Assembly (NCBI GenBank): GCA_903813345.2
Contig: CAIIXF020000001.1
Coordinates: forward strand, 186,001 to 250,000
From: Owenia fusiformis
Taxonomy: Eukaryota
DNA length: 64,000 nt
Direction of reading: 5' to 3'
The position numbers were made by a program, and so were the translations under genes. The notes under the pieces were generated by a model. The model ran no database searches and was not told the origin of the DNA. It saw only the letters and a program-made list of their open reading frames with translations. This document shows, piece by piece, positions 21,811 through 63,869 of this stretch (the stretch's first letter is position 1; each line of letters starts with the position of its first letter).

Positions 21811-22715
21811 TTATGAGTCTGATGATCCAAAGTTCAGTTGGTTTAACTGCACCCCTCCATGACTGCTACTAGAAATGTCTGTTGTGAGGTTAGCTTCATA
21901 TGTTGGGTTCTCAAATGCTGGCTTCATTGGTATCTTCAATGGAGACCTCCTGCAGAAGAAACAAACTGGTTTAATAATTTCATACTCTACATTGAGGTTA
22001 ATTTCTGCTTTTTGTGAATATCATATATGGTGTAAAGAATTGTGGATAATCAACTTGTTAAATGTTTTGATATTGATGTACTTGTGTACAAGTTGCATGG
22101 AACTGGAGATTACTAGTGAAAAATATAACGAGAGCAAACTACAGTAAAGCCTGGCATTCCTAATGACCCTAGGACTGGCCAGACAAGCAGGTGTTTATAT
22201 TTTAAGTTTATTAACATGTTAATCTTTAAACAAGGCATTCACATGTAAAATGTCACAACCATTTGTTACAAACACCAACCAACGAGACCACCACAATGAG
22301 TCACCACTTTTTGATGGTGACATAAAAATTGAAATAAAGAGTTCACATTGAAAGGTGTTCAGATTACAGAGATGTGTGGTCTCATTGTATGTGTGGGATT
22401 GTCAACTTACAGCTTGCGTCTGAAGAGGAATCCCATCAAAACAATGATGATGACAACGAGGACTACAGCCCCAACACTGACGCCTACAATGACACCCGTC
22501 CTGTTGCTGCCACTATTTGACCCTGTCTGGCCTTGGGGAGCTTCTACAATACAACATCAAAAGTATGAGTCACAAATATCACATGGAATGAAGACTGGCA
22601 AAACCATAAATCAGTTATTAATAGAATATTTATCACTGCATGTTTAACTTACTTGGTGAGACTGATGGTTGACTGGATGAAGATTTTAATGTGCTGCCAA
22701 TAGAGCTGCTAGACC
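21811..22715 (-). other. Duplicate copy of stalk/TM/tail exons (22653-22715, 22411-22543, 21811-21949)
   Basis: Same sequence as the exons at 24128-25032, shifted by 2317 bp. Confidence 0.85.
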
Positions 22716-24127: not shown

Positions 24128-24266
24128 TTATGAGTCTGATGATCCAAAGTTCAGTTGGTTTAACTGCACCCCTCCATGACTGCTACTAGAAATGTCTGTT
24201 GTGAGGTTAGCTTCATATGTTGGGTTCTCAAATGCTGGCTTCATTGGTATCTTCAATGGAGACCTC
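24128..24266 (-). CDS. Cytoplasmic tail exon (stop)
   Basis: RSPLKIPMKPAFENPTYEANLTTD...FGSSDS*. Confidence 0.85.
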
Positions 24267-30200: not shown

Positions 30201-33200
30201 TAAACCAGGGTCCCTCTACATCCCGCTTTACATGTACATGTAGCAGTATAAGCTGCTATCAGATATATTCTTTATAGTAATGGCATTTTCTTTATTTTCA
30301 TTTTCAGGTGTAAACATCTCAAATTCTGATTCATTGTACCTGTATATGATGTGATTGCTTTTGCGTGCATTGGAACAACTTAACGCGCAAATAGTGTACA
30401 TGTAACATTTTATGTTATACTGTTGTAATCCGATCCTTTCAAAATGATGAACAAGGTATTGGTACTTTATTTGCTTGCATTCGACGCTCACCAGAACACC
30501 CCCCCCCACCCAATCAAAAGCTGGCTACACAACCCTGTAATACGCATGGCCCACATTTGAATTCAACCATGGAAATTAAGCTTCATCCATGTTGTCTTGC
30601 TCTGAAAGATAAATGACCAGTGTAGCGCTTTATGAACAATATGGTTATTCTTTTTAACTCTTACATATATAATCATGTATATCGTGTAAAACGTAATCGG
30701 TCGTATGTGACCAGAACGGTGGAAATAAGATCATTAAATGTAGACACTATCACAGAAAGAATAGTTGCCTCGTTGCAAGTCAAACATTGCCTCGTTTCAT
30801 TGTTACAAAATGTAGACAGGTGCCTCGTTTCCTAAGTGAGAGAATTGAAATGTAAATATCTCATCAATGTCTGTATTGATTTCTAATTTGCAATCATATT
30901 ATAAAACCGGAACTTATAAGCTATTTACTTGCCAAATATTAAGTTTTAATTTGAAGGATAAAAGCACGAAAATAGTAAAAAACAAAAATCTTACCGAATG
31001 AAATGTTTTCACGCGCCGCCATTTTGATACGAGGCAAAACCTCCCTCGTTTCCAGTTCATCCCCAGTGTGCTTACTATAATTGATTATATTAAACAAAAA
31101 TTCCATTTTGTTGCAATTGCTTACTATAATTGATTATATTAAACAAAAATTCCATTTTGTTGCAATTGCTTACTATAATTGATTATATTAAACAAAAATT
31201 CCATTTTGTTGCAATTGCTTACTATAATTGATTATATTAAACAAAAATTCCATTTTGTTGCAATTGCTTACTATAATTGATTATATTAAACAAAAAGAGC
31301 CAAATGAGCATAACTGAAAGTACGAAAAATGTTAGTTGTTGAACTCTTTTAAAGTTATTAAAGGTCGCATATAACGATAAAAGTGATTTTCACTCCATAT
31401 TAAAAGCTTTCATACAGCAATTTGCTGTGTATATAACACTTATTTGTACATACGCACTTAGAGTGAATATTCATCTTTCATTCCATATAAAGAGTACAGA
31501 AATTGATCAAATATTGATGGAGTGGGAGTTGTTACAATGACCCCCTACAGTTAGAGTTATTTTGTATATAAATGTGAAATAATTTGGGGAATCCACTAAC
31601 AGTTTGTCATCGTGACATTTGTTTTGGGGAATTCCTAACAACAGTCAAATACTTTCACTCTCATTATTAGAGCAAATAGCGTATTTATTGCATTTAATTG
31701 ATTGAAATGAATCTAATTGATGATATACTTAAAAAACTCATTTTTATTGTGTTCTTAGCCCTTGATAGTTATATACATCCTTTAACTATTTATTCGTTAT
31801 ATCCTGTCAAAAATGGATGATTCCCATCCTAACCCAAAATATTTTTGTCCCATGACATCATTACTAGAAACATCCCTGAAAATTTCAGATGAATCCAACA
31901 AAATGTTTAGCTGGAAACCTGTAGACAAGATTCATTGGGATACCCCTTCGCCCATCCACCTGATAAAAACTGATCACAATATAGCAACCCAAGGGTGCAA
32001 TAAAAATAACATTCATACAATTCTTTATAAATACCACAACATATACATAAAAAACAGGCACAGACATCCATATATTAAACCAGTCTCTCCCCATCATTAG
32101 TTTGGCAACCAGGAGTTTTCATTGAATGGCATATGAAAGTCATGTAAATGTTTGAATCTTCATTTTATTGAATTAGTGTTTAAAATCACCAAACATACAT
32201 AGGCTTTAATGAGTAATCAAAAAGGGGAATAACAGTTGGCAAACCTTTTGAAGGGAAGTGGTGAGAATGAGACATGACACATGTGAGCTAAGAATATGTT
32301 ATATATACAGTATATTATTATTATGTATGTATATGTCTAACCTGTGCAAGTTGGCGCCACATCAGGCATCCATGTACCATCCTGCCCACACTTTCTAACA
32401 TTGTTACCACTAACCATATAACCTTCACTACAGGAATATTGGGCCACATTGCCAAATGCATTACCATCTAATACCACACTGCCTTTATCTGGGGAATCAA
32501 GCTTATTGGGACACGTCACAACTGAAAATCAAAAACGCAATTAAGAATACTCCATTTTATAAACAATTGTAAAATATTAAAATTACTACAATTTGTTTGT
32601 TTCACAGATTGACTAATATTATGATACATGTACATGTATATTACTTAATCCTACCTGCATATGTCAATGTTATTTCAGTTGAAACTTTTTAATTCAAAAT
32701 GAGATACACATTTGTGACAATGGCATCATAAAAAATTTACAATAAAACCTGTCTAATCCAACCATCACTGGGAGCAGCCAGTGTTCAGCAGGTGTTCATA
32801 TTTCAAGGTTGTTTTTTAAAACATGTGGATCAATGGTAGGGATAAATAAACAAGGCACATGACGTGAACAAGATCACACCATCAAGAAACCTTCAAAATG
32901 GCCATCAGAAAACAAGATGGCCACTCAAAAGTCAATCAGCTCTAGAACTTGATATCCTCTATCATGTATGCAAATTTGAAGAAAATCTGATTTATCAGTT
33001 TTCCTGAAATCACGATGATAAGATTTATCAACAAAAACCTTCAAATGGCCACCAGAAAACAAGATGACCTCAAAAAAGTTAATCAGCTCTAGAACTTAAA
33101 ATACACTGAGGCTTCATGTCACCAAAGGTTCCACCTTGCATACGCTGCCTTATATCTTCATTCAATACAAAGCATCACTGTACTTACAGATACACTGAGG

Positions 33201-36200
33201 CTCCACACCACCCCAGGTTCCATCTAGCATATACTGCCTTATATCTCCCTTCAATACAAAGCATCACTGTACTTACAGATACACTGAGGCTCCACACCAC
33301 CCCAGGTTCCATCTTGCATATACTGCCTTATATCTCCCTTCAATACAAAGCATCACTGTACTTACAGATACACTGAGGCTCCACACCACCACAGGTTCCA
33401 TCTTGCATACACTGCCTTATATCTCCCTTCAATACAAAGCATCACTGTACTTACAGATACACTGAAGCTCCACACCACCCCAGGTTCCATCTTGCATAAA
33501 CTGCCTTATATCTCCCTTCAATACAAAGTATCACTGTACTTACAGATACACTGAGGCTCCACACCACCCCAGGTTCCATCTTGCATATACTGCCTTATAT
33601 CTCCTTTCAATACAAAGCATCACTGTACTTACAGATACACTGAGGCTCCACACCACCCCAGGTTCCATCTTGCATATACTGCCTTATATCTCCTTTCAAT
33701 ACAAAGCATCACTGTACTTACAGATACACTGAGGCTCCACACCACCCCAGGTTCCATCTAGCATACACTGCCTTATATCTCCCTTCAATACAAAGCATCA
33801 CTGTACTTACAGATACACTGAAGCTCCACACCACCCCAGGTTCCATCTAGCATACACTGCCTTATATCTCCCTTCAATACAAAGCATCACTGTACTTACA
33901 GATACACTGAGGCTCTACACCACCCCAGGTTCCACCTTGCATATACTGCCTTATATCTCACTTCAATACAAAGCATCACTGTACTTACAGATACACTGAA
34001 GCTCCACACCACCCCAGGTTCCATCTAGCATACACTGCCTTATATCTTCCTTCAATACAAAGCATCACTGTACTTACAGATACACTGAGGCTCCACACCA
34101 CCCCAGGTTCCATCTTGCATACACTGCCTTATATCTCCCTTCAATACAAAGCATCACTGTACTTACAGATACACTGAGGCTCTACACCAACCCAGGTTCC
34201 ATCTAGCATACACTGCCTTATATCTCCCTTCAATACAAAGCATCACTGTATTTACAGATACACTGAAGCTCTACACCACCCCAGGTTCCATCTTGCATAT
34301 ACAGCCTTATATCTCCCTTCAATACAAAGAATCACTGTACTTACAGATACACTGAGGCTCCACACCACCCCAGGTTCCATCTTGCATATACTGCCTTATA
34401 TCTCCCTTCAATACAAAGCATCACTGTACTTACAGATACACTGATGCTCTACATCACCTCAGGTTCCATCTAGCATACACTGCATTATATCTCCCTTCAA
34501 TACAAAGCATCACTGTACTTACAGATACACTGAGGCTCTACACCACCCCAGGTTCCATCTTGCATGCACTGCCTTATATCTCCCTTCAATACAAAGCATC
34601 ACTGTACTTACAGATATACTGAGGCTCTACACCACCCCAGGTTCCATCTTGCATACACTGCCTTATATCTCCCTTCAATACAAAGCATCACTGTACTTAC
34701 AGATACACTGAGGCTCCACACCACCCCAGGTTCCATCTTGCATATGCTGCCTTATATCTCACTTCAATACAAAGCATCACTGTACTTACAGATACATTGA
34801 GGCTCCACACCACCCCAGGTTCCATCTAGCATATACTGCCTTATATCTCCCTTCAATACAAAGCATCACTGTACTTACAGATACACTGAAGCTCCACACC
34901 AACCCAGGTTCCATCTTGCATATACTGCCTTATATCTCCCTTCAATACAAAGAATCACTGTACTTACAGATACACTGAGGCTCTACACCACCTCAGGTTC
35001 CATCTTGCATATACTGCCTTATATCTCCCTTCAATACAAAGCATCACTGTACTTACAGATACACTGAGGCTCTACACCACCCCAGGTTCCATCTAGCATA
35101 CACTGCCTTATATCTCCCTTCAATACAAAGCATCACTGTACTTACAGATACACTGAGGCTCTACACCACCCCAGGTTCCATCTTGCATATACTGCCTTAT
35201 ATCTCCCTTCAATACAAAGCATCACTGTACTTACAGATACACTGAGGCTCCACACCACCCCAGGTTCCATCTAGCATACACTGCCTTATATCTCCCTTCA
35301 ATACAAAGCATCACTGTACTTACAGATACACTGAGGCTCAACACCACCCCAGGTTCCATCTTGCATAAAGTGCCTTATATCTCCCTTCAATAAAAAGCAT
35401 CACTGTACTTACAGATACACTGAGGCTCTACACCACCCCAGGTTCCATCTAGCATACACTGCCTTATATCTCCCTTCAATACAAAGCATCACTGTACTTA
35501 CAGATACACTGAGGCTCTACACCACCCCAGGTTCCATCTTGCATATACTGCCTTATATCTCCCTTCAATACAAAGCATCACTGTACTTACAGATACACTG
35601 AGGCTCCACACCACCCCAGGTTCCATCTAGCATACACTGCCTTATATCTCCCTTCAATACAAAGCATCACTGTACTTACAGATACACTGAGGCTCCACAC
35701 CACCCCAGGTTCCATCTTGCATAAAGTGCCTTATATCTCCCTTCAATAAAAAGCATCACTGTACTTACAGATACACTGAGGCTCTACACCACCCCAGGTT
35801 CCATCTAGCATACACTGCCTTATATCTCCTTTCAATACAAAGCCAAAGTTGCATTCAAAGTTCACCATGTCACCAATCTCATAGAACTCTGTGGTTTTGT
35901 TGTAGTTTGTAATGAGTTTTCCATTGGCTGGGTAGCCAGGGTCACCACAGTATACTGGCTCACCTTCACCTGGAGAATCGACATGTTTTGTAGATATAAA
36001 TGGATGGAAAGACTTATGTTAAAAATATTAACTTGTACATTTCAATAAATGTATATGTACAAGGTGACACAAAAAATGCAACCCTCCATTTTTGCATTTT
36101 TGGTCACCCTATATATAAAATGAAGTTTCATTATCCTGAATTGTCATGAGTTGGGGATTTATAGATTCCTCCATCCTTATTATAAATAAAATGATACAAT

Positions 36201-41695: not shown

Positions 41696-41734
<39 letters not shown>

Positions 41735-47700: not shown

Positions 47701-50700
47701 ACATAGAATTGATAAAACTATTCGCATCTCACCTCGAAACCATAAGTAATCAAAGATTAGAATACTATACGGCCTATTGAACAGCCCCATTTTAGTCACA
47801 CACATACACATGAAGTGTTTTTATTTTGTATCTTTGATCTATTTATATTATTTATATCATATGTCATTTCAATATATACAAAGACATGGCTAGTAATGCC
47901 AGAATGGCACAGCCATTGAAATAAATTTATATAAAAAAAACAAAAAAAACTCCACTTATTCAAAATGGATGCTTTGATCGAGCCAACATGACCAAAACCT
48001 AATCAGATATAGAATGAAGTGAGTTGAAGAAGATGTTAAAAGTTTTAAGGGAACAGTGAAGCCTTGATATCTGTTTTTCTACTATATTTGGCATTTTATT
48101 CTTTACCCATGTGGTACCTCACTAATGTGCCATATCAAACCATTGTGTCCCGTGTCCATGGATGGACAGACAGACAGATGGCCTAGGCAGACAATATGTC
48201 CCCAAACTATGAGGGGAGGGAACATAAAGGAAATGATAAAGTATTGGAAAAGATATCAAATATCAGTTAAACACCATTTTTGGTGAGACAACAGTTGAAG
48301 CCTTCCACTTACTGTTACATATTGGATCTGCGTCTGTCCATGTGCCATCACTTAGACACGTCCTCTCTGCAGCACCAATCAGATTGTAGCCTTTGTTACA
48401 CTTGTACTTGACAACACTGCCAACCTTCCAGCTGTCAGCAATGATGTAACCATTCAAGGGATCTCCAGGATCTCCACATTCCGTAATAGCACCTGCACCT
48501 ACAGACAAACAAAATAACTATTCACGGGGCCTTGAGGATGTCCACACTCAGTGATAGCTCCATGACAACCATGTAAAGACAACAAATAGAACTGTCTATG
48601 GTCTCTGGCCAGGATAAAGATAGCAGGTCCTGTCAGATTAATATGGAGACCTGTTTCTACATATACCTTACAAATATCAATAGGATGGGGAAATTCAACC
48701 CCTAAAATAGAATAAGATGGGAAATTTAATCCTTTACAAATAAATAGAACAGATGGGAGAACATTACAGGCTAGAAAAACCTCCAACTCTCCTAAACTTG
48801 ACGATGATGAACAAAATTCGAGGGGTCTCCACACTCCACACTCAGTGATAGCTCCAGGACCCACAGACAACAAAATAACCATTTTAGTGACCTTTTATTT
48901 GCTCATCGTATAGGAAAAATTGTCCATTTTGAAAACTGTTTGGATGGTGTATAAATGGGCCAAATTAGGATGCAATGTATCTCTTTGCTGGTTAATATGT
49001 GAGTGTAAACTCTTGGGCAATAGGTAAAAGCTGAAAACATTTATGAAAAGATCGAATTATTTTTTGGTGGATATTTATGAGACGGATACAACGTAACTCT
49101 TTAAGGGGTATCCAGGATCTCCACACAGAGTGTTACATGTACTTGTTGTCCAGCCTCGTAGGTCCAGGACCTACAAAATAACCATTCATGGGTCTCCAGG
49201 ATCTCCAACCCCGGATATCCACACTAAGTTATAACTCCTTGTTTATAGCTCCAGGACTTGCAGACAACAAAATATCTTCATTCTACATTTATATCAATAT
49301 TTAGATGGATTTAGCCACAAAAGGCCATATTCACGGGAGACAATCAGACTGAAGACAAAGCAGCGGCTGTGACTTGCGCACTACAGTAGGTAACATTAAT
49401 TGGAAGCTAAGTCCAAATAATAAGATTAAAATTTTGGATATGACATTTAGTAGAACCACCAGTGTTACGGATCTTGTACAGGACAATTTTGAGCCAAAAA
49501 TACACTTAAGGACCCATGGCCTTGTGGTCATGAGACCTCAGTAGGTGTTTTGTGATTAAGCTGACCAAAATTTGAATCAAAAAAATTAATTTGAAAAACA
49601 AACTTTTTTGACCTTTTGGAGCCTACTGAAGGTCAAGTTAAGGTCAAATCTTAAATCTAAGGTCAGCTTTGAACTCCTGAGAACATGAAGATGATTTCTG
49701 AAAATAAATTTGGTAAAATTGAAGCAAGTTGAAAAATAACCTATTTTTACCATTTCTTGATGACAAATATCTCAAATATGGTAAAAATGTAATGATGGCA
49801 TACTCAGTTTTAATTAGTGCAGCCAATGCTGATGGGTGTATGAGGGACAAAATAACATTTTCTGTATAATTTATCCAAGGCAATGATTTATCCAAACCCG
49901 CCCTATTGGGTATTGTAGCCTCATTTTGAATTGCGCGAGTCAGAGTCTCAAGCTGTGTCTTTGATTTGATTGTCCACTGTGATATAGGACAACATTATTA
50001 CAACAGAGCAGCACAGTGCCTTCCATCTTATGCATACATGTTGCGATTGGGCGATGAAACAAGAAGCTCACTAGTTCAAGTCACTGGTGATTTACACTCT
50101 TCAGAAAAACTAACAAGGCATTAACATGACAAAATGTGACCACCTAGTTGCTCACAATATTATTGGTTCAATCTTAATGCACTTAGAGCATGCACTTAGA
50201 GTTTGCTTTTTCTTATTTTTGAGGTTATGAGCATTGGCTATCAATTTCTAATTTTTTCTTCAACATGAATTGTAATGACTTCAGTATGAATGAAATGTCC
50301 CTTGGTCTTTGATTGTGATATCGGTTCTTGAATGGTGGGGGGGAGGGGGTATTGGACATTGTTTCTTTTCACGTTAGATCATGGTTTTGGGCTATATGGG
50401 GTTTGTTTTTCTTGACTGGTATGCACTTAGAGTTTGCTTTTTCTTGCTAAGTTCCATTACAACTTTTGGTCCTTTCCCTTTGGCACTAGTGCTTATATAT
50501 TAAATCAGATTTGAATTCCTGAGAACTTGTAGATGATTTTGAGAAAAAAATTGTCAATTGAAGCAGGTTGAAAAAAGACCTTTTTGACCCCAAGAAGGTC
50601 ATTGATGGGCAATCATGGTGAAATCTCAAATATTTAAAGTCATCTTTTTTACCTTTTTTGACATTGAAAAGGTCACTGAAAAAGTGTAGATGATTTTGAA

Positions 50701-53700
50701 AAAAACTGAAGTCAGTCTAAACAGTATTTGTTAAGTTATTGGAAGTTTTAAGAATTTGTTACAGATCCCAACCGCCTACCACCAACCGCCGTCACAAAAA
50801 AACAGAGACCATAACAATATGCAGGGGCGGATCTGGGATCCAACAAGGGGGGGGCCCAAATTCCAGGTCATAGAAAAGATGTCCGCGCTTGCGAGAAAAA
50901 ATTTTTTGGGCCACTAAAACGCAAAAGTGGGCCCAAATTTTGAAATTTTGAGGCCCATTTTCTTCAAAATTTGGCCTGAATTTAAAAAATAAGGCCTTAA
51001 AAGGCCCAGTAATGACCAAAAAGGCCGACTTTAGGGGGCCTTTATTGGCCCAAATTTTTTTTTGGGCCCAATTTTTTTTTCTGGGCCCACCCAAGGGGGG
51101 GGGCCCGGGCCCCCAGGCCCCCCCCCCCCCTAATCCGCCAGTGATATGTCATCACTTTTTGGTGGTGACATAATGAGATACTGTATATTAGCATATTGAC
51201 AATTGAATTAAAGTATCAGATTAGTTTAAAAAAGTAGAATATGTCAACCCCAAATATTAAAACTCTAACTTGAATCTCTATCTGTAGAGTGTACATTTGT
51301 CAGATAGTCGATCTACTGCTTATCTACCTTTGATGGACAATGATGGTGAAATCTCAAAAATCTAAAGTCAGATTTGAACTTCTGAGAACTTGAAGATGAT
51401 TTTGAAAAAATTGGTCAATTTGAAGCAAGTTGAAAAAAGACCTCTTTGACCTTGAGAAGGATATTGAAGGTCAAATCTGGTGTAGGATTTGAACTTTGGA
51501 GAACTTGCAGATTATTTTGAAAAAAATTGGTCAATTTGAAGCAAGTTGAAAAATAACTTTTTTTTACCTTTTTTGACATTGAAAAGGTCACTGAAGGTCA
51601 AATCTTAAATATAAAGTCAGATTTCAACTTCTGAAACTTGCAGATGATTTTGGAAAAAACTGAAGTCAGTATAAACAGTATTTGTTAAGTTATTGGAAGT
51701 TTTAAGAATTTGTTACAGATCCCAACCACCGATCGCCAACCGTCATCACAAAAAAACGGAAACCATAACAATATGTCATCACTTTTTGATGGTCACATAA
51801 TCATAGAATGAGATACTGTATATTAGCATATTGACAATTGAATTAAAGTCTCGGATTAGTTTAAAAAAGTAGAATATGTTAACCCAAAATATTAAAACTC
51901 TAACTTGAATCTCTATCTGTAGAGTGTACATTTGTCAGTTAGTCGATCTACTGCTTATCTACCTTTGCATACTGGAATCTTTCCTGCCCACTGTCCTGTG
52001 CTGATACATGTCCTAGAGCTTGTCCCAGTCAGAGTAAGACCAGAGTTACATGAGTAGGTAGCGACACTGCTCACTTTCCTGTCCATGCTGAGTGATACCC
52101 TACCTCTGGCTGGGTACCCCGGATCTCCACATTGGATCTCTAGAAATAATAGCACATTGTAAATACTGTATATGTGACATCACATTTGTTAGTTCTTGTA
52201 CAATGACGTTATATCAAATGACATACTGAAAGTGTATCAATGACATAATATCAAATGACATACTGAAAGTGTATCAATGACATGATATCAAATGACATAC
52301 TGAAAGTGTATCAATGACATGATATCAAATGACATACTGAAAGTGTATCAATGACATGACATCAAATGACATACTGAAAGAGTATCAATGATGAATAATG
52401 GGAGATATTTCAAAGCAGTCAGAATTTTCATTGAGTATTCTCTTTTCCCATATTCACTACTGTATTGTCTTCTAACCTAGACATGTTTCCATGATTCCTT
52501 CCCAAGTTCCATCAGAGCGACAAGTGAGAGCATTTTCCACTCTGCTACTTGGGAACTTAAAGCCTGATGTGCACTTGTAGATGACCACATCCCCAGTCTT
52601 GTAGTTGGCCTTGCTGTTCTGTATCACTCCACTGGTGGATGTGGGGAGCAAATCGGTCCTGCAGCCAATAGCTGCAATATAAATATACAATAAGGGATAT
52701 ACTGGATAGAATAAAACTAAAATACAGCAACTTGACAGAGTAAGAAATCCCACCGAACAAAACATGTTCTGATAAATAGCAGCCATCTTGAAAATTTCTT
52801 CTTGATCAAAGCTCCTTTTTCAACATATCAACAAAACATTTGAACCAAATACATGAACTGGTATTTGAGTTATCAAAGATAGCATTTTTCTATGAATTAT
52901 GATGACCATTTTGAAATTCAGCTGCCATCTTAAAAATTTCTTCTTGAGCAAAACTTCCTCGTCCCTAAGTATCAGCATATAAAATTTGAATCAAATCCAT
53001 CAACTGGTATTTGGGTTATCAGAGATTACATTTTTAACGAGAAATGTTAGCCATTTTGATAAATAGTAGCCATTTTGAAAAAAACTTTCTTGGGCAGAGC
53101 TCCTTTATCGCTGGGCATCAGCATGTATAATTTGAACCAAATCCCTCCACTGGTATTTGAGTTATCGAGGATTACATTTTCTACAAAAAATTGGGGCCAT
53201 TTTGAAATTCAGTGGGCATCTAGAAAATGTCTTCTTGGGCATAGCTCCTTTATTTCAGGGCATCAGCACACCTCTATAAATTTCAACCAAATCTGCTCAC
53301 TGGTATTTGAGTTATTGAGATTACGTTCCTTTACAAAAAATGAAATTCATCTTGAAAATTACTTCTCAAGCAGAGCTCCTGTATCCTTAGGCATCAGCAG
53401 ATAAAATCTAAACCAAATCCATCTGTGGGTATTTGAATTATCAAAGATTACATTTTTGTTAGAAAAATAGCCGCCACTTTGAAATTCAGCAGCCATCTTA
53501 GAAAGTTCATCTTGACCAAAGCTCCTTTGTCCCAGTAGGCATCAGCAAATAAATTTTGAACCAAATCTGTCAACTAGTGTTTGAGTCATATTAAAAATTG
53601 CTTCTCGAGCAGAGGTCCTTCACACATAAGGTATAAGCCTAGGAAAATGTAATAATCTGTCAAGCAGAATTTGGGTTTCAACCCAGACAGGGCAACGTAC

Positions 53701-56700
53701 AAACGGATGAACAGACAGATGGTCAGCAGCTTCTCTACATCACATCAAACGAAGGGATAATAATTTCATTTAAATCAAAAATTAAAGCACTTTTTATTAG
53801 GACCACCTATCTGCACTCCCAGGACAGCAACAAACATTACTCTTACAAGAGAGAGATGTAGCACCTCTTGATTGATTATAACATAATAAATAGAGATTAT
53901 CCTATCTGAGGTTCAAGATATTGGGATTATCCTGAGGCCAATATAATATAAATGGTCGAGGGCCTTATTAATAGGTCCCAAGGGGATATATATAATATTG
54001 GCCGAGGGATAAACAGATCATCCCATACCAATCTTGCTCATCTGGTTCCCATTATTCAATTGACCAAAATTAAGAAGGAGTCTAAAGATTCTTTTCGAAT
54101 ATCCATGTCCAGCTTTATTTTCTTGGCCATGGCCAGATTTTCCTATCCTTTCAGATAAGATGGAAATATAAGTTTTTACAAACCTGCTTAATAATGTACA
54201 TGAAACATATTCAAGTATGGGATAATATAGCTAATTGTTAATTCCTTTACCTTTATATTCCATCCAGAATCCCTTGGCCTTTCTGTTGGCCAGTGTAGTA
54301 GACTTAAGTGTAATCTTTGCAGTGTTAGACACACTTGTCAGCTTATTCAGGATGTCTGTCTGAGGACCACATAGGTTAGGTACATCTCCAAATCCAGTGA
54401 AACCAACATTTTCTTCATTACATGCATCTGGCCTCATGTCCACTTCTAAGAAGAATAGTTCTATTTGTTGTCCTGGACCCACCTGGTGTCATTGAATATA
54501 TAATATTACTCAGACTTGAGGGAATGCTGATTTAAAATGTGTTATATCAATGTGATCATTTCATTAAATGATTGCTAATGGATTTGTATGGCTTAACTGT
54601 AATTTACTTGGAAAGCAAAATAACATGTAATATGCAGCTTTATTTAATGGTGTTGAACTTTCATATGATTTGATTGTTCCTTTTGATGTAAATATATCCT
54701 TTTATTTCATCCCACAATATTCAGAGGTGAAAAGCATTGGTAAGATTGTCCAGTAAACAATATATATAAAAATTACACAAACTGAATGATTTTGTTAGAA
54801 GAAATGGGCATACAAAGATATTATTGCCTCTGCAATAACAGTTAAAATATCAGTAGCTCTGGTGGCTCATTCCTCCTGTTTCTATGACAACCATAATTTT
54901 TTGCCATTTATGGTAATGTGCTTAAATGTGCCAAATTCCAATGGAAATGAACAAATATAAATATGAATAAAAATAGTACTGTGGGTACTTGGCTTATATG
55001 GTGCCTATTGGTAACCAGCACTTTCAGTAGGTTTGTCAAAGAGTGCGTTCCTGGGACGGATTGACTTTTAAAAGTGAGTCTTCCCTCAAAAAAGTGTGTC
55101 CCGTGAAAAAAGGTTACCGGTAATTCAAAGTCACATTTTAACAATGAACAAAAAAGTTTATGAAAAGTTTCAAATGAGTTTTGTTATTTATCAGCCTAAA
55201 TCAGTGTTCTACACACATCTTTTCGTATTTTGAAGCAATTTGCTTTTAATTTTGTATAGCTCAGAAAATTTCACTAAAGGCAATTTCTGCGAGGTTCCAT
55301 TTATTAGTTCCGTTTTATGCGCATGCAGCAACTTGGTTAGTTAAAATTATTAAGACGCATGTGCGATTAATAATCGCGGCTTACCATAGGACTTGTACCA
55401 ATTACCGCTCAGTACTGCCAGACTGTAGCAACTAGTGATTCTCCTTTCACCTGTACAATTTGAAGCAAATTGATGGAATACTTGTGCAATTATAACCAAA
55501 AAAACTAAAGCCATTTTGAATATTTACACCATATTTTGCTGCAATGTGTAGACATAATTCATAACCAAGAAATTAAGGTACCTGAACAATATCAAGCAAA
55601 TTGATGGAATACTTGTGGGGTTAAAATGAAAAAATAGTTAAAAATAATTTCAAGCAAATTGAGGGAACACTTGTGGAGTTATGGACCAAAAATAAGATGA
55701 AAACCTGATTTTTCTGCAATAAAAGTGGTAACCATTTTGCAAGTTTGCGATTTGTTTTGCCAAAACTTGTACGTAGGTATTATTGATAACACATAAATTA
55801 AGGAACTTGTACAATTTGAAGCAAATTAGTGAAAAACTTGTGGAGTTATAAACCAAAAATGAACTGAAAACCTGATTTTTGTGCAATAAAAATGGTCGCC
55901 ATTTTGAAACAAGGTGAGCTTTTGAGACACCGCTTATAGAACAATTAATTACCTCATGTAGACACATTTTAAAAGTGAAATCGTTCCAGTTGTCGTGGAG
56001 GATTTTGAATAAGGTGCCAATGTGTTGACAGACAGACAGATGGACGGACGGACAGAAGGACAGATAGACAGACAGACAGACAGACAGATGGACAGATGGA
56101 CAGATGGACAGACAAATGGGTGATATCAATTAATAGCTCACCCATGTGAGTTAATAAAGCAAAAAGTAGTGAACATATTGATGGGCCCTTGTATAGCACT
56201 TTTTAAAGTGCCATAAAAAATCATTGTTACCATGTACCTGTATATTCCATATGCAGAACCTGTTGTCCCCATATGTAATAGAAGGGTAACCAGGACTGAG
56301 AATTTCCCCTTTGTCTTTAGTGTATTTGCCTCCACAGTCAGGGAAGGCTGCAATAATGTAACATTTATAAATATAACATATAGTCTTCTTTGGGGTAGCC
56401 TAGACTTAGGATGTCTCCTGTATGTTCTGTATATTTGCCTCCACAGTCAGGGAAGGCTGCAATAATGTAACATTTATAAATATAACATATAGTCTTCTTT
56501 GGGGTAGCCTAGACTTAGGATGTCTCCTGTATGTTCTGTGTATTTGCCTCCACAGTCAGGGAAGGCTGCAATAGTGTAACATTTATAAATATAACATATA
56601 GTCTTCTTTGGGGTAGCCTACACTTAGGATGTCTCCTGTATGTTCTGTATATTTGCCTCCACAGTCAGGGAATGCTGCAATAGTGTAACATGTATAAATA

Positions 56701-58736
56701 TAACATATAGTCTTCTTTGGGGTAGCCTAGACTTAGGATGTCTCCTGTATGTTCTGTGTATTTGCCTCCACAGTCAGGGAAGGCTGCAATAGTGTAACAT
56801 TTATAAATATAACATATAGTCTTCTTTGGGGTAGCCTAGACTTAGGATGTCTCCTGTATGTTCTGTATATTTGCCTCCACAGTCAGGGAAAGCTGCAATA
56901 ATGTAACATTTATAAATATAACATATAGTCTTCTTTGGGGTAGCCTAGACTTAGGATGTCTCCTGTATGTTCTGTATATTTGCCTCCACAGTCAGGGAAG
57001 GCTGCAATAGTGTAACATTTATAAATATAACATATAGTCTTCTTTGGGGTAGCCTAGACTTAGGATGTCTCCTGTATGTTCTGTGTATTTGCCTCCACAG
57101 TCAGGGAAGGCTGCAATAGTGTAACATTTATAAATATAACATATAGTCTTCTCTAGGGTAACCTGGACTGACTCAATTATATCTAATTTGCTAGTCAAAT
57201 ACATGTGTTGGAGGATAACAATCATATGGACATATTAAAACTTATTCTATTTTATGAGTAAGAAATATCAAACAACCCCTTTTTGGGAGGTGGTCGCAAA
57301 CATACTTTATAAACACATGGAAAATTATCAATAGACTTGATACTACTGTACATAGCTTCGAGTTTATATTAGCAAACTTTGATTTTTGTCTAAAAAGTCA
57401 TCCTTATGCTATTTTTAAGAAAAGTAAGTAATATTTTCAACACATACATCATGGTTGTCTTGGCAAAAAAATGGAACAAAAAATTAACCTTTAATTACCT
57501 TTACTTTACCTATACTGTATCAATTATCATAAATAAGGCCACGATACAATGAGTAATATGTTAACAATCAAAGGCCTACTTGTATATTCCATATAGTATC
57601 CTCTGCTTGTCCTGTAGTTACTCTCCCTTGTCAGTTCAATGCAGACAGTTGTACCAGTCGAGTAGAGAATGTCCTCTGTATTTGGACTTCCAGGTTTAAT
57701 GGAATTCCTGTACCTCCGCAGACGTGGACTATGAGCAATGAAGAAGTTGTCATTACAGTTATTTCCATCATAAACTGTAAGTTTATCTCCTGGGTTGAGG
57801 TCGTAATCTTGGACACTGATGCGAAGGCGCATGTTGGCAGTGGGAGATTTCATACGCACTATACACTTGCTTCCTGGACCAGGATAAGAGTTAGGGTAAT
57901 TCGGAGAGCTTACGGCACCAAAGTTTGGCTGTTGGATTACACCACCACAGTTCGCAACTGGAAATAAACTAGAAGTTCAATATGACTGGTCCAATTCCTG
58001 TTCCGTTCAGTTTTTGAGAAAACAAAAACAAGTGCACCCACACATATAACTGTTAATACCAGAATTAGATATTCCTCAAAAATATTGTTTTGTTTAATAT
58101 ACAAAATTCTGTCACGAGACAGTATGAACTCTGTGTTCTACCTGTAACTATAGGTGGTGCTGGTGTTGAGCTAGGATAGACTCCGCCCCCACGTACACAC
58201 GGCTCTACTGCCTGTGACCATTTGCCATTGGACAGACATGTCACAGTGTAACTAGAGGCTCCCTTGGCCTGGAATCCTAATTTACAAGTGACAATCACAG
58301 TGTCACCATAAGTGTCCCCGTTAGACATGATATCTGCATTGGTCACATTCACAATCCTTCCACAGCTTTGGGCTTAAAAGGGAAGAGTTTAATTAAAGTT
58401 CAGTGCATGAGCATAAAAAGATCAAATAACAACAGATTAAGTTTATTTTGTATATATTGTACATTTTCTATAACTGTAGTGCACGCAAATAGGAATAATC
58501 AAACATTATTGAATTGTAAGGTACTACATGTTTAATGTATTAACACATAATTAAATGCTTACAGACACAAATAGGGGCATCTCCAGCCCATTTGCCATCA
58601 GCGCCACATTTCCTTGTTGCCACTCCACTCAGTCTGTAGCCCTTGTTACACATATAGAGGGCAGTGTCTCCAAAGTCCAGACCTGACACACTCACCGTAC
58701 CAAATGGATGTACATCGGGCTGTGTACAATGGGTCA
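24128..58736 (-). CDS. CUB and Sushi (CCP) multi-domain type I membrane protein (CSMD/SVEP-like architecture), 5' end beyond window
   Basis: 23 GT-AG exons in continuous phase, listed separately. 14 Sushi (C..P..G....C..GY.L.G...C...G.W....P.C), 4 CUB (CGG...SPNYP..Y...C.W...KGF...Y), Ser-rich stalk, TM GVIVGVSVGAVVLVVIIIVLMGFLF-RRK, tail with FENPTY. Confidence 0.92.
24728..24860 (-). CDS. Transmembrane exon
   Basis: APQGQTGSNSGSNRTGVIVGVSVGAVVLVVIIIVLMGFLFRRK. Confidence 0.88.
24970..25032 (-). CDS. Ser-rich stalk exon
   Basis: SSSSIGSTLKSSSSQPSVSP; 63 nt, phase 1-1. Confidence 0.72.
25425..26214. mobile_element. Tc1/mariner-like MITE (truncated duplicate at 23108-23462)
   Basis: TA-flanked imperfect TIR cagggttggcaaataaaaatgggacac / gtgtcctattttttattgcccaccctg. 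Confidence 0.8.
26388..26597 (-). CDS. Sushi exon + stalk
   Basis: ESCGDPIQVTGA...WSTYPAACMANSATPGPTK. Confidence 0.88.
26816..26989 (-). CDS. Sushi exon
   Basis: TQCRTPIIHP...WSASPPICI. Confidence 0.9.
28032..31295. repeat. 49-bp satellite (28032-28595 and 31069-31295) split by a transposon
   Basis: Unit aaattccattttgttgcaattgcttactataattgattatattaaacaa; repeat phase resumes after the TSD. Confidence 0.95.
28596..31068. mobile_element. Non-autonomous DNA transposon, ~247-bp TIRs, CAC...GTG ends, 5-bp TSD (Transib-like)
   Basis: TGCTT|CACTGGGGATGAACTGGAAACGAGG ... CCTCGTTTCCAGTTCATCCCCAGTG|TGCTT; subterminal GAAACGAGGC repeats. Confidence 0.9.
32342..32521 (-). CDS. Sushi exon
   Basis: VTCPNKLDSPDKG...WMPDVAPTCT. 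Confidence 0.9.
33100..35842 (-). repeat. 89-bp tandem array (~30 copies) of Sushi exon 3' end plus splice donor
   Basis: Minus-strand unit = 74 nt of exon 35769-35969 (FVLKGDIRQxMxDGTWGGVEPQCI) + gtaagtacagtgatg. Confidence 0.95.
35769..35969 (-). CDS. Sushi exon
   Basis: EGEPVYCGDPGYPANG...CNFGFVLKGDIRQCMLDGTWGGVEPQCI|gtaagt. Confidence 0.88.
36293..36410 (-). CDS. Sushi exon (C-terminal part)
   Basis: IGSVATYGCLDGYALDTPANTRTCKADQTWSGSTPNCVG. Confidence 0.88.
36721..36980 (-). CDS. Sushi + start of next Sushi
   Basis: VGCDAAKIPNLDNG...CKADGTWEGQSDSCGFIQCGDPGVPAFGYLRLTSGAE. Confidence 0.88.
37114..37235 (-). CDS. CUB exon part 2
   Basis: YCGSSPQAPYVSTSNEVTILFKT...KGFWISYK. Confidence 0.88.
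37529..37754 (-). CDS. CUB exon part 1
   Basis: FATCGSDQMPLPEGDIFSPNYPRKY...CGDADYLDV. Confidence 0.9.
37948..38078 (-). CDS. CUB exon part 3
   Basis: SVSSARIQDKLPDVFFSSGVWVCLELKRKSAVPSAKGFSLKYK. Confidence 0.87.
38819..39213. mobile_element. MITE with ~26-bp TIR
   Basis: aaaggacgattctcggtttggagaac / gttctccaaaccgagaatcgtccttt; related sequence at ~12835-13040. Confidence 0.7.
39756..40080. repeat. ~112-bp tandem repeat x3
   Basis: gaatcttggagtattatcttaatttgggac recurs at ~39756, 39868, 39980. Confidence 0.9.
40261..40403 (-). CDS. CUB exon part 2
   Basis: IRVPTGFRSRLYLTDVKLNKGDVLTIYDGPYCSDNVLVAPSRRLRRY. Confidence 0.87.
40735..40838 (-). CDS. CUB exon part 1
   Basis: SKCGSNWAYRMEGLITSENYPKPYNTPGDLCINK. 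Confidence 0.87.
41041..41097 (-). CDS. Thr/Pro linker microexon
   Basis: QVTTTRLIPRTIPTAPPV; 57 nt, phase 1-1; matches the linker at the end of exon 58142-58372. Confidence 0.7.
   Translation of the reverse strand, partial: SKLQQPDLSQGLFQQHHL
42867..43046 (-). CDS. Sushi exon
   Basis: VKCPNYPPVKNG...WDKVYRQCE. Confidence 0.9.
43381..43566 (-). CDS. Sushi exon
   Basis: ITCGAPDLHPKG...WSGDSPICI. Confidence 0.9.
44168..44359 (-). CDS. Sushi exon
   Basis: THCPGPLFAPEPNG...WNLGDIIPSCE. Confidence 0.88.
45353..46112 (+). mobile_element. HINE-like element
   Basis: aactagataacggcaactccgcggagtagc start, (GACG/GACA)n microsatellite, 3' hairpin ccctaccgaacttcgttcgttgggataa. Confidence 0.55.
46164..46579 (-). 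mobile_element. Short CR1-like LINE 3' end
   Basis: QGQWIWNSIERPIRGSSSLNIFKIRYKKYLIDKISLD*; A-rich tail; probable TSD CTTATTT. Confidence 0.7.
46740..47949 (+). mobile_element. CR1-like LINE 3' fragment (open 327-aa C-terminus)
   Basis: LILDQHLKF..H, ILPHFEYCDIVF, LNWLPLETRR, CLCGVESETLRHFFFRC zinc knuckle; AATAAA and poly-A at 47920-47949. Confidence 0.9.
48313..48498 (-). CDS. Sushi exon
   Basis: AGAITECGDPGDPLNG...WTDADPICN. Confidence 0.9.
50822..51143. mobile_element. GC-rich MITE with 5-bp TSD
   Basis: CAGGGGCGGAT...ATCCGCCAGTG flanked by ATATG; empty site visible in the paralogous copy at ~51770. Confidence 0.8.
51963..52139 (-). CDS. Sushi exon
   Basis: EIQCGDPGYPARG...WAGKIPVCK. 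Confidence 0.9.
52200..52392. repeat. 37-bp minisatellite x~5
   Basis: atcaaatgacatactgaaagtgtatcaatgacatgat. Confidence 0.9.
52477..52671 (-). CDS. Sushi exon
   Basis: IGCRTDLLP...CRSDGTWEGIMETCL. Confidence 0.88.
54251..54482 (-). CDS. CUB exon (C-terminal part)
   Basis: VGPGQQIELFF...LCG...KGFWMEYK. Confidence 0.88.
56238..56347 (-). CDS. CUB exon (N-terminal part)
   Basis: FPDCGGKYTKDKGEILSPGYPSITYGDNRFCIWNIQ|gtacat. Confidence 0.88.
56319..57165 (-). repeat. 109-bp tandem array (~8 copies) of splice acceptor plus CUB exon start
   Basis: Minus-strand unit ...tattgcag|CCTTCCCTGACTGTGGAGGCAAATA...; copies at 56328, 56437, 56546 ... 57091. Confidence 0.95.
57580..57957 (-). CDS. CUB exon
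   Basis: ANCGGVIQQPNFGAVSSPNYPNSY...SRGYYMEYT; 378 nt. Confidence 0.9.
58142..58372 (-). CDS. Sushi + linker exon
   Basis: QSCGRIVNVTN...WSQAVEPCVRGGG..PPIVT; 231 nt (AAG acceptor). Confidence 0.85.
58563..58736 (-). CDS. Sushi exon
   Basis: THCTQPDVHPFG...WAGDAPICV; 174 nt, phase 1-1. Confidence 0.9.
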
Positions 58737-61700
58737 CTACAAATGAATAACATTATTTAAACATGTACCAAATGGATGTACACCGGGCTGTGTACAATGG
58801 GTCACTACAAGTCAATAACATTATTTAAACATGTACAAAATGGATGTACATCGGGCTGTGTACAATGGGTCACTACAACTCAATAACATTATTTAAACAT
58901 GTACCAAATGGATGTACATCGGGCTGTGTACAATGAGTCACTACAAGTCAATAACATTATTTAAACATGTACCAAATGGATGTACATCGGGCTGTGTACA
59001 ATGGGTCACTACAACTCAATAACATTATTTAAACATGTACCAAATGGATGTACATCGGGCTGGGTACAATGAGTCACTACAAGTGAATAACATTATTTAA
59101 ACATGTACCAAATGGATGAACATCGGGCTGGGTACAATGATTCACTACAAGTCAATAACATTATTTAAACATGTACCAAATGGATGTACATCGGGCTGTG
59201 TACAATGGGTCACTACAAGTGAATAACATTATTTAAACATGTACCAAATGGATGTACATCGGGCTGTGTACAATGGGTCACAACAAGTGAATAACATTAT
59301 TTAAACATGTACCAAATGGATGTACATCGGGCTGTGTACAATGGGTCACTACAAATGAATAACATTGTTTAAACATGTACCAAATGGATGTACATCGGGC
59401 TGTGTACAATGGGTTACAACAAGTGAATAACATTATTTAAACATGTACCAAATGGATGTACATCGGGCTGTGTACAATGGGTCACTACAAATGAATAACA
59501 TTGTTTAAACATGTACCAAATGGATGTACATCGGGCTGTGTACAATGGGTCACTACAAATGAATAACATTGTTTAAACATGTACCAAATGGATGTACATC
59601 GGGCTGTGTACAATGGGTTACAACAAGTGAATAACATTATTTAAACATGTACCAAATGGATGTACATCGGGCTGTGTACAATGGGTCACTACAAATGAAT
59701 AACATTATTTAAACATGTACCAAATGGATGTACATCGGGCTGTGTACAATGGGTCACTACAAATGAATAACATTGTTTAAACATGTATCAAATGGATGTA
59801 CATCGGGCTGTGTACAATGGGTCACTACAAGTGAATAACATTGTTTAAACATGTACCAAATGGATGTACATCGGGCTGTGTACAATGGGTCACTACAAAT
59901 GAATAACATTGTTTAAACATGTACCAAATGGATGTACATCGGGCTGTGTACAATGGGTTACAACAAGTGAATAACATTATTTAAACATGTGCCAAATGGA
60001 TGTACATCGGGCTGTGTACAATGGGTCACTACAAGTGAATAACATTGTTTAAACATGTACCAAATGGATGTACATCGGGCTGTGTACAATGGGTCACTAC
60101 AAGTCAATAACATTATTTAAACATGTACCAAATGGATGTACATCGGGCTGTGTACAACGGGTCACTACAAATGAATAACATTGTTTAAACATGTACCAAA
60201 TGGATGTACATCGGGCTGTGTACAATGGGTTACAACAAGTGAATAACATTATTTAAACATGTACCAAATGGATGTACATCGGGCTGGGTACAATGATTCA
60301 CTACAAGTCAATAACATTATTTAAACATGTGCCAAATGGATGTACATCGGGCTGTGTACAATGGGTCACTACAAATGAATAACATTGTTTAAACATGTAC
60401 CAAATGGATGTACATCGGGCTGTGTACAATGGGTCACTACAAATGAATAACATTGTTTAAACATGTACCAAATGGATGTACATCGGGCTGTGTACAATGG
60501 GTCACTACAAGTGAATAACATTGTTTAAACATGTACCAAATGGATGTACATCGGGCTGTGTACAATGGGTTACAACAAGTGAATAACATTATTTAAACAT
60601 GTACCAAATGGATGTACATCCGGCTGTGTACAATGGGTCACTACAAGTGAATAACATTATTTAAACATGTACCAAATGGATGAACATCGGGCTGGGTACA
60701 ATGAGTCACTACAAGTCAATAACATTATTTAAACATGTGCCAAATGGATGTACATCGGGCTGTGTACAATGGGTCACTACAAATGAATAACATTGTTTAA
60801 ACATGTACCAAATGGATGTACATCGGGCTGTGTACAATGGGTCACTACAAATGAATAACATTGTTTAAACATGTACCAAATGGATGTACATCGGGCTGTG
60901 TACAATGGGTCACTACAAGTCAATAACATTATTTAAACATGTACCAAATGGATGTACATTGGGCTGTGTACAACGGGTCACTACAAATGAATAACATTGT
61001 TTAAACATGTACCAAATGGATGTACATCGGGCTGTGTACAATGGGTCACTACAAATGAATAACATTGTTTAAACATGTACCAAATGGATGTACATCGGGC
61101 TGTGTACAATGGGTCACTACAAATGAATAACATTGTTTAAACATGTACCAAATGGATGTACATCGGGCTGTGTACAATGGGTCACTACAACTCAATAACA
61201 TTATTTAAACATGTACCAAATGGATGTACATCGGGCTGTGTACAATGGGTCACTACAAGTCAATAACATTATTTAAACATGTACCAAATGGATGTACATC
61301 GGGCTGTGTACAACGGGTCACTACAAATGAATAACATTGTTTAAACATGTACCAAATGGATGTACATCGGGCTGTGTACAATGGGTTACAACAAGTGAAT
61401 AACATTATTTAAACATGTACCAAATGGATGTACATCGGGCTGTGTACAATGGGTCACTACAAGTCAATAACATCATTTAAACATGTACCAAATGGATGTA
61501 CATCGGGCTGTGTACAATGGGTCACTACAAGTGAATAACATTATTTAAACATGTACCAAATGGATGAACATCGGGCTGGGTACAATGATTCACTACAAGT
61601 CAATAACATTATTTAAACATGTGCCAAATGGATGTACATCGGGCTGTGTACAATGGGTCACTACAAATGAATAACATTGTTTAAACATGTACCAAATGGA

Positions 61701-63383
61701 TGTACATCGGGCTGTGTACAATGGGTCACTACAAATGAATAACATTGTTTAAACATGTACCAAATGGATGTACATCGGGCTGTGTACAATGGGTTACAAC
61801 AAGTGAATAACATTATTTAAACATGTACCAAATGGATGTACATCGGGCTGTGTACAATGGGTCACTACAAATGAATAACATTGTTTAAACATGTACCAAA
61901 TGGATGTACATCGGGCTGTGTACAATGATTCACTACAAGTCAATAACATTATTTAAACATGTGCCAAATGGATGTACATCGGGCTGTGTACAATGGGTCA
62001 CTACAAGTGAATAACATTATTTAAACATGTACCAAATGGATGTACATCGGGCTGTGTACAATGGGTCACTACAAATGAATAACATTGTTTAAACATGTAC
62101 CAAATGGATGAACATCGGGCTGGGTACAATGAGTCACTACAAGTCAATAACATTATTTAAACATGTGCCAAATGGATGTACATCGGACTGTGTACAATGG
62201 GTCACTACAAGTGAATAACATTATTTAAATATGTACCAAATGGATGAACATTGGGCTGGGTACAATGAGTCACTACAAGTCAATAACATTATTTAAACAT
62301 GTGCAAAATGGATGTACATCGGGCTGTGTACAATGGGTCACTACAAATGAATAACATTGTTCAAACATGTACCAAATGGATGAACATCGGGCTGGGTACA
62401 ATGAGTCACTACAAGTGAATAACATTATTTAAACATGTACCAAATGGATGTACATTGGTCTGTGTACAATGACTCACTACAAGTGAATAACATTATTTAA
62501 ACATGTACCAAATGGATGTACATCGGGCTGTGTACAATGGGTCACAACAAGTGAATAACATTATTTAAACATGTACCAAATGGATGTACATCGGGCTGTG
62601 TACAATGGGTCACAACAAGTGAATAACATTATTTAAACATGTACCAAATGGATGTACAGCGGGCTGTGTACAATGGGTCACTACAAGTGAATAACATTAT
62701 TTAAACATGTACCAAATGGATGTACATCGGGCTGTGTACAATGGGTTACAACAAGTGAATAACATTATTTAAACATGTACCAAATGGATGTACATCAGGC
62801 TGTGTACAATGGGTCACTACAAGTGAATAACATTATTTAAACATGTACCAAATGGATGAACATCGAGCTGGGTACAATGGGTTACAACAAGTGAATAACA
62901 TTATTTAAACATGTACCAAATGGATGTACATCGGGCTGTGTACAATGGGTTACAACAAGTGAATAACATTGTTTAAACATGTGCCAAATGGATGTACATC
63001 GGGCTGTGTACAATGGGTCACTACAAGTCAATAACATTATTTAAACATGTGCCAAATGGATGTACATCGGGCTGTGTACAATGGGTCACTACAAGTCAAT
63101 AACATTGTTTAAACATGTACCAAATGGATGTACATCGGGCTGTGTACAATGGGTCACTACAAGTGAATAACATTATTTAAACATGTACCAAATGGATGTA
63201 CATCGGGCTGTGTACAATGGGTCACTACAAATGAATAACATCATTTAAACATGTACCAAATGGATGGAGATTGGGCTGTGTACAATGAGTCACTACAAGT
63301 CAATAACATCATTTAAACATGTACCAAATGGATGTACATCGGGCTGTGTACAATGGGTTACAACAAGTGAATAACATTATTTA
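58697..63383 (-). repeat. 68-bp tandem array (~69 copies) of splice acceptor plus Sushi exon start
   Basis: Minus-strand unit gtacatgtttaaataatgttattcatttgtag|TGACCCATTGTACACAGCCCGATGTACATCCATTTG. Confidence 0.97.
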
Positions 63384-63869
63384 TCCCACGATTAATGTGT
63401 TATCTGTACAATAACAGCTATTGATATTTCTGATATTATTAAAATCCGTGTGATATTTTCCAGAAAATCGTTTATCAAACTCTTATGCGTGTGATATCGT
63501 TTATCTCACGCATATCCGTGTGATATCACATTTGCATTTCGCGCCACAATATTGTTGGAACTTAGGTCAGATAATTTATTCTCTTTTGGGAAAATAGGTC
63601 CGTTAATTTATTCTCTTTAAGTTTCATTGATGTATTGAATTACGATTGTGTATATAATTTGATTAGAAGGCTGCTAACTAACGATTAAAAATGGTATTTA
63701 TGACGAACTATATCATGTTATTTACTTTTAATTGTTAAAATAAAGTGTTTCAAATATTCAATTGATATTCTAATTTCTAGTTTATATTGTCTGCCAATGT
63801 CCTGGAAATTGGATCAGAACATCACAAGGTGATTGTAATCATGTGATAAACCCAATATGACATAATTTC

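Follow-up and report, generated by a model that had tools for sequence, protein, structure and literature searches.

Mirage minisatellites, which reiterate an exon–intron border, were reportedly first described by Canestro in 2002. In lancelets they have been found at the genes for Adh3, troponin C (TnC), the globins BflGb6 and BflGb9, and PGBD5 (PMC3087553; PMC3902484). As described in PMC3087553, their units of 10–160 bp occur at 5′ as well as 3′ exon borders, and numerous copies, though not every one, carry an AG or GT; splicing is normal by reverse transcription PCR, array length varies between haplotypes, and the units evolve in concert with the exclusion of the boundary units. The Adh, TnC and PGBD5 arrays are described as behaving likewise (PMC3902484). 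That mirages might be “a more general phenomenon” was suspected by the authors of the lancelet work, and Ebner et al. proposed mirages as raw material for new introns (both in PMC3087553). Here we compare these systems with a CUB/Sushi transmembrane gene of Owenia fusiformis, an annelid (PMC9977687), in which three tandem arrays run across exon borders. The gene lies within a stretch of 64,000 nucleotides (contig CAIIXF020000001.1 of assembly GCA_903813345.2, positions 186,001 to 250,000), hereafter the window, in whose numbering all positions below are given.

The other described cases are human. Borensztajn et al. (2006, PMC1557585) list junction-spanning variable number tandem repeats (VNTRs) with 5–25 copies of units of up to 100 bp, the first unit spanning the border: intervening sequence (IVS) 7 of F7 (37 bp, 5–9 copies), 6-16 (25 pseudo-sites), IVS13 of CBS (15–20), LMNB2 (100 bp, 10–15 copies) and intron 4 of PDGF (81 bp, 16–18 copies). 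According to the same source, the authentic donor alone is used in F7, LMNB2 and PDGF, and in 6-16 and CBS the two nearest pseudo-sites are used as well; the pseudo-sites of F7 are functional yet silent, the most upstream donor being chosen in a 5′-to-3′ scan (PMC1557585).

The Owenia gene has at least 24 small exons, which code for Sushi and CUB domains; after these come a hydrophobic, transmembrane-like exon and then a tail exon. Its exon map was derived from open reading frames (ORFs) and is accurate only to within a few bases, save at the junctions that we inspected directly. Among eight exon ORFs submitted to Pfam, five gave a Sushi domain (PF00084) and two a CUB domain (PF00431) above cut-off, and a sixth Sushi match (44163–44411) scored 19.5 bits, just under the 20.7-bit cut-off; more Sushi- or CUB-like exon ORFs are present in the map. 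All four of the structural features of mirages for which we tested the three arrays were found in them. Judged by their sequence organisation, we class them as mirage-type minisatellites, a kind already in print; what is new is the host phylum, the scale of one acceptor array (68 extra copies) and the occurrence of several arrays in one gene. The literature that we searched held no report of junction-spanning arrays in annelids, the cases there being only lancelets and the named human genes.

The array with the most copies of an acceptor has a 68-bp unit (68.9 copies at 58697–63383 with 94% matches in Tandem Repeats Finder, TRF). Read on the minus strand, on which the gene lies, the unit comprises the last 28 nt of an intron (...cacttgtag) and 40 nt from the start of a Sushi exon, and the array divides into 69 units at an exact spacing of 68 nt, with no indels. 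The authentic acceptor (AG 58738–58737) is that of the 69th and last unit, from which the sequence continues into the remaining exon (Table 1). The first unit is diverged, differing at six positions. The A of the acceptor AG is among the commonest variant positions, and the AG is lost in 14 of the 68 extra copies. The unit also contains a G/GTAC motif (slashes mark actual or potential splice borders) 36 nt from the acceptor and in frame with it; GGTAC is kept in 57 of the 68 units.

An acceptor is likewise reiterated by the 109-bp array (7.8 copies at 56323–57169, 97% matches), whose unit, on the same strand, joins the last 32 nt of an intron to 77 exon-like nt. Here the units are nearly identical to one another (5 segregating sites in 109), and the authentic copy is the one that stands apart. 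The start of the authentic CUB exon is 50–53% identical to CUB/Sushi proteins, and it matches the array units solely from intron position −32 to exon position +28; along the ~49 nt that follow, identity to them drops to about half, with no indels (CGGKYTKDKGEILSPGYPSITY in the authentic exon versus CGGKYTEHTGDILSLGYPKEDY in the units). The founding duplications must therefore be far older than the 94–97% homogeneity of the arrays suggests. We also considered a paralogous exon as the source of the 109-bp unit and rejected it within the window, where no other CUB exon resembles the unit.

The third array reiterates a donor. Its 89-bp unit (30.9 copies at 33094–35843, 95% matches) holds, on the minus strand, the last 75 nt of a Sushi exon and 14 nt of intron (GTAAGTACAGTGAT). 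Leading the array is the authentic copy (GT 35768–35767), after which come 29 regular copies and a single decayed one; TCT/GTAAGT is shared by the authentic copy and 28 of the 29 regular ones. Interior units depart from the consensus at 0–6 positions and the authentic unit at 3 of 89, versus 19 of 89 for the terminal unit. Since the authentic copy differs so little and the distal one so much, the functional exon end has been homogenised together with its copies. Homogeneity inside the arrays combined with divergence at the far end is what unequal exchange or conversion classically leaves behind when array ends are spared.

To place these arrays among the other exon borders of the gene, we compared all 48 exon ends with the 2 kb of adjoining intron by Smith–Waterman alignment, with 100 shuffles each. 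Clear copies were found at five of the 48: the three arrays (z 50–57), the acceptor at 48499 (z 18) and the donor at 51963 (z 25). Two further exon ends gave marginal short matches (z ~4.5), which we set aside, and the remaining 41 had no copies in the 2 kb scanned. At 48499, the acceptor-derived copies are no longer strictly tandem and most are without an AG; this cluster at 48.5–49.3 kb shows the decay state of an abandoned array. The donor at 51963 is part of a 197-bp direct repeat that begins 5 nt before the donor GT of its Sushi exon, and the GT of the second copy lies at 51327–51326. A dispersed repeat sits between original and copy. It belongs to a family with members at 13264–13590, 14988–15350, 49588–49760, 50502–50821 and 51335–51775, in introns of both genes of the window, and has an internal tandem structure of its own (~115–150 bp). 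As for the three array units, an origin from a dispersed satellite or transposon was rejected within the window, each unit being present solely at its own locus.

These results bear out, at each point that we checked, the description in the initial annotation, which had been made from the letters of the sequence. TRF together with cutting into units gave the same positions and unit sizes for the three homogeneous arrays that start within an exon and cross its splice site; the systematic scan agrees with copies at five or more exons; and both the decayed acceptor copies placed near 48520–49270 and the donor duplication placed at ~51326 were recovered. The pre-mRNA was said to carry roughly 100 extra, mostly intact splice sites, and we count 105 extra junction copies in the three arrays, 90 of them with an intact AG or GT (54/68, 7/7 and 29/30). 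The other tandem arrays of the window had been called intronic, and so they are: the 59-bp array begins more than 100 nt past a donor and stops ~100 nt before an acceptor, and the 49-, 113- and 37-bp arrays found by TRF have no overlap with the ORF-based exon map.

Table 1. Positions of the junction arrays, their authentic exons and other features of the window.
Feature	Position	Strand	Details
68 extra copies of the 68-bp unit	58765..63388	-	AG kept in 54/68
Authentic Sushi exon at the 68-bp array	58563..58736	-	Donor GT 58562-58561; Pfam Sushi 1-56/56, E 4.8e-11
Seven homogeneous 109-bp units	56380..57169	-	AG in 7/7; preceded by a partial diverged unit
Authentic first exon of CUB domain	56238..56347	-	AG 56349-56348; 8th copy of the 109-bp array
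29 regular extra copies of the 89-bp unit	33174..35754	-	GT in 29/29; TCTGTAAGT in 28/29
Terminal decayed 89-bp unit	33085..33173	-	19/89 positions off consensus; donor GT changed to TT
Authentic Sushi exon at the 89-bp array	35769..35969	-	Pfam Sushi 1-56/56, E 6.7e-8
Decayed acceptor copies (at least 4)	48526..49277	-	Acceptor plus first ~55 nt of the next Sushi exon; best z 18
Authentic Sushi exon downstream of the decayed copies	48313..48499	-	Pfam Sushi 1-56/56, E 3.2e-12
Duplicated donor (second copy of 197-bp direct repeat)	51144..51332	-	92% identical to 51771-51967; z 25
CUB/Sushi transmembrane gene	~63.4 kb down to ~21.8 kb	-	ORF map and Pfam
RAD23-like gene	~4.3-18 kb	+	UBA domains (Pfam)
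59-bp array, ~100 copies	6540-12458	+	5.9 kb, 97% matches; largest array of the window; fills most of a RAD23-like intron

The array copies have no coding potential. Entry at a 68-bp acceptor reads THCTQPDVHPFGTCLNNVIHL and then a stop, entry at a 109-bp acceptor reads ...GYPKEDYMLYL and a stop, and read-through past an 89-bp donor ends in ...EPQCICKYSDAFY and a stop; in the ORFs, every decoy site leads to a stop within ~10–30 codons, and none of the unit lengths (68, 89 and 109) is divisible by 3. The common variants of the 89-bp copies are non-synonymous: Cys to Tyr (TGT to TAT, which removes a conserved Sushi cysteine), Gln/Leu and Pro to Leu. Stop codons occur in 4 of the 30 copies. Taken with the lost AGs of the 68-bp array, these findings count against a role in isoform diversification, as they do against conversion cassettes under selection and against intact decoys being selected for.

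In their organisation the arrays resemble the lancelet mirages closely. The unit is made of an intron end and part of an exon, with the authentic border as one end unit in all three cases; the unit lengths of 68–109 bp fall within the lancelet range; AG or GT is kept in many, not all, of the copies; and concerted evolution is accompanied by divergence of the boundary units. The differences are that the host is an annelid rather than a cephalochordate, that there are up to 68 extra copies versus 3–6 in BflGb6, and that a single Owenia gene combines three live arrays with a decayed cluster and a dispersed copy. Regular splicing and unstable array length were demonstrated for the lancelet cases; for the Owenia arrays our description is of the sequence. 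The 89-bp array is the counterpart of the human donor VNTRs, with an authentic donor followed by some 30 copies that carry identical pseudo-donors, and a similar unit length and copy number. However, the listed human cases are all donor arrays, whereas two of the three Owenia arrays reiterate acceptors, and use of the upstream-most donor, which is an experimental result for F7, is an assumption for the 89-bp array. With the model of intron gain by tandem duplication of proto-splice sites (the Rogers model, as cited in PMC3087553; PMC3265369) the arrays have in common their ready-made splice signals, but the Owenia copies lie in a pre-existing intron, and a new intron or exon cannot be shown. 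Ordinary intronic minisatellites, of which the window has several, undergo the same expansion, homogenisation and decay but, unlike the junction arrays, have neither an exon part nor a splice site.

Taken together, we think it likely that the arrays are by-products of a duplication-prone, exon-dense locus, mirage-type, silent in splicing and neutral or slightly harmful, rather than a device. They would have begun as small local tandem duplications of 68–109 bp that happened to include an exon–intron border, and unequal exchange or replication slippage would then have brought them to 8, 30 and 69 units while continuing to homogenise them; the far end units, with little exchange, would diverge, and old arrays would decay as at 48.5–49.3 kb. 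The decoys match the real sites across the whole unit, scattered variants aside, the likely branch-site region of the acceptors included, so that only context from outside the unit could distinguish the authentic sites. For the acceptors, that context may be the remaining exon and a donor ~110–175 nt away, which only the authentic one has; for the donors, it may be that only the authentic one is the first after the acceptor of its exon. It is therefore very probable that the authentic sites are the ones spliced, selected by exon definition together with a 5′-to-3′ choice of the first donor. Exon definition fits such a choice of authentic sites. The scanning model of PMC1557585 does so too. Mis-spliced RNAs, with their premature stops, would be substrates of nonsense-mediated decay (NMD). 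A transcript that did use a decoy would meet an early stop and would be degraded or would yield a truncated product.

Several points weigh against this interpretation. The silence of the decoys is something that we infer by analogy; the published scanning model, as presented in PMC1557585, covers mammalian donors, and for an array with 68 extra acceptors no tested precedent exists. The five common variants in the exon-derived stretch of the 68-bp unit (positions 30, 33, 42, 54 and 66) all fall on third codon positions, and 51 of the 68 units encode the identical 12 residues, THCTQPDVHPFG. By our own arithmetic the chance of this third-codon pattern is ~0.003–0.008, and it looks like coding constraint; unequal exchange may have imported synonymous alleles of the functional exon into the array, which would need no function of the copies. 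Among arrays with at least eight copies, those lying across a junction are 3 of 3 (P = 0.004), or 3 of 4 once the dispersed 49-bp array is counted (P = 0.011), figures for a threshold that was set after the data had been seen, with a small n, and in a window itself selected for its arrays; they hint that units containing exon sequence expand or persist better than intronic ones. Finally, the unrelated RAD23-like gene has a 61-bp tandem duplication (4321–4441, plus strand; 88.5% identical) that ends within ~3 nt of an acceptor, cag/GAAAAAT. It copies the last ~61 nt of the intron, including the polypyrimidine tract, and its upstream copy has TT in place of AG; it is junction-adjacent, short of a full mirage.

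One rival reading is a mutational bias tied to exon borders, by which duplications would start there or units containing exon sequence would expand more. Candidate causes would be GC-richer exon edges in AT-rich introns, exon chromatin, or breaks linked to transcription or splicing, and mirages would then be a distinct mutational class common to annelids, lancelets and humans. The initial annotation had taken the recurrence to suggest either junction targeting or a selected system. We collapsed each local duplication in the gene to one copy (leaving 27.7 kb with 24 exons, 16% exonic), placed the events at random and discarded wholly exonic placements; a random unit of 68–200 bp then strikes a junction with a probability of 0.12–0.31. 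The gene has 12–15 local duplication events, plus a 2.3-kb tandem duplication. Five junction events compare with 2.4 expected among the 12 events in unique sequence (P = 0.067), and with 3.0 expected when transposon-like arrays are included (15 events, P = 0.16). Over all duplication events, then, the excess is about two-fold and not significant, and it does not carry the step from recurrence to targeting. In favour of a bias are the three large unique arrays, all of which span a junction, the proportion of exon ends affected together with the sixth, RAD23-like duplication that ends at an acceptor, the higher G+C content of the array regions (0.37–0.44 versus 0.30–0.36 in the surrounding introns) and the more general phenomenon suspected in lancelets (PMC3087553). 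Against it, the window was chosen because of its arrays, its largest array is purely intronic, and the breakpoints, 5–77 nt away from the junctions, have neither a position nor a motif in common. Hairpin-driven slippage was rejected as a cause, since single units folded as DNA, on both strands, form no better structures than shuffles do (z −0.24 to +1.09). A junction bias of duplication is thus possible rather than demonstrated, and we regard it as an unlikely account of the arrays.

A selected system seems very improbable to us. In it, decoys would compete with the authentic sites, so that copy number would tune productive mRNA through NMD, or 36-nt in-frame mini-exons would add 12-residue repeats to the protein. 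The retention of AG or GT in most copies, the in-frame G/GTAC with its frequent conservation, the synonymous common variants of the 68-bp units and the exons that stay open despite old arrays would all suit it; yet every decoy read-through runs into an early stop, AG is among the most variable positions of the 68-bp array, the 89-bp copies are unconstrained, and the published homologous structures are silent or nearly so. The mini-exons would in addition require 32-nt introns between neighbouring units, and such introns are shorter than normal animal introns. A related idea, in which dozens of intact sites divert part of the receptor pre-mRNA to NMD and fast growth and shrinkage of the arrays set expression allele by allele, would make the arrays a splicing decoy tunable by copy number, and we give it little credence; its corollary, that continual exchange with the functional exon keeps the exon part of the units exon-like while a junction bias shared with lancelets feeds the system, is to be held with the same strong reserve. 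Of the specific roles proposed in the initial annotation, isoform diversification is opposed by the stops that follow decoy use, and conversion cassettes stand in one respect only: the authentic exon end is homogenised with its copies, which shows that exchange with the exon takes place, but the Cys-to-Tyr change and the stops of the 89-bp copies speak against selection for it. The descriptive part of that annotation thus holds, and its junction-targeted mechanism or selected system has no support from our tests. It would, lastly, be very surprising if the arrays or their copy numbers were products of mis-assembly of a repeat-rich, heterozygous genome. The nearby 2.3-kb tandem duplication, at 99.96% identity, is such as haplotype mis-joining can produce, but the recurring variant subtypes, the diverged terminal units and the seamless continuity with intact exons are what real minisatellites typically show and tell against this for the arrays, and a decayed cluster and a dispersed donor copy cannot arise by assembly. 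The reading of the arrays as silent by-products of local duplication is therefore the one that we retain.

Several other features of the host gene may be recorded here. The 2,320-bp tandem duplication (21146–23465 and 23463–25782) doubles both the transmembrane exon (24727–24873 and 22410–22556) and the cytoplasmic tail exon (24131–24337 and 21814–22020); it arose very recently or else represents a haplotype or assembly join. At 36276–36900 (minus strand), a single exon encodes a whole Sushi domain plus the first ~20 residues of the next (IQCGDPGVPAFGY...) without the usual inter-domain intron, and the remainder of the second domain is encoded by the next exon. The intron thus falls ~60 nt into a domain, which is where acceptor-type mirages end; the Smith–Waterman scan found no repeat remnants in it. 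Orthology to a named CSMD or cubilin protein was not supported, the best representative matches in tblastn being 26–53% identical per domain, and “CSMD-like” is therefore an architecture label only. Word-index searches with the ORFs of CUB exon 2 and of a single-exon CUB (proteins of up to 2000 residues) returned no annotated or transcript-derived product of the gene, and a search of representative proteins with its ORFs gave distant CUB/Sushi proteins and none closer.

The window as a whole has a G+C content of ~35% and contains two animal genes, the second being the RAD23-like gene, one exon of which is 100% identical to an Owenia fusiformis protein. This gene also has an in-frame coding repeat, GQAPV[SP]AT (24 bp, 3.5 copies, 6257–6340, plus strand), in an exon for a Pro/Ala-rich linker. 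In its large intron, open frames at 13787–14773 (plus strand) contain motifs that by eye resemble reverse transcriptase (...FADETNL...) and are probably a fragment of a non-long-terminal-repeat retrotransposon. Two 49-bp arrays, at 28032–28843 (11.5 copies) and 30821–31296 (4.7 copies), are adjoined by 248-bp flanks that are mutually inverted and 95.6% identical; the pair looks like the two termini of a transposon-like element that has subterminal tandem repeats and encloses ~2 kb.

If confirmed, these arrays would extend mirages from cephalochordates and a few human donor VNTRs to a slowly evolving spiralian, which would suggest that they are no peculiarity of lancelets but occur widely among animals whose introns are rich in repeats. 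Such arrays are also a hazard for annotation, since gene predictors can choose the decoy sites. The locus also offers an extreme natural experiment on splice-site choice, with 54 intact matching acceptors upstream of an authentic one and, in the same gene, 29 matching donors downstream of the authentic donor of another exon; the way in which the spliceosome ignores these decoys, or the share of them that it does not ignore, is relevant to exon definition, to the donor-scanning model and to the part that repeats may play in the gain of introns.

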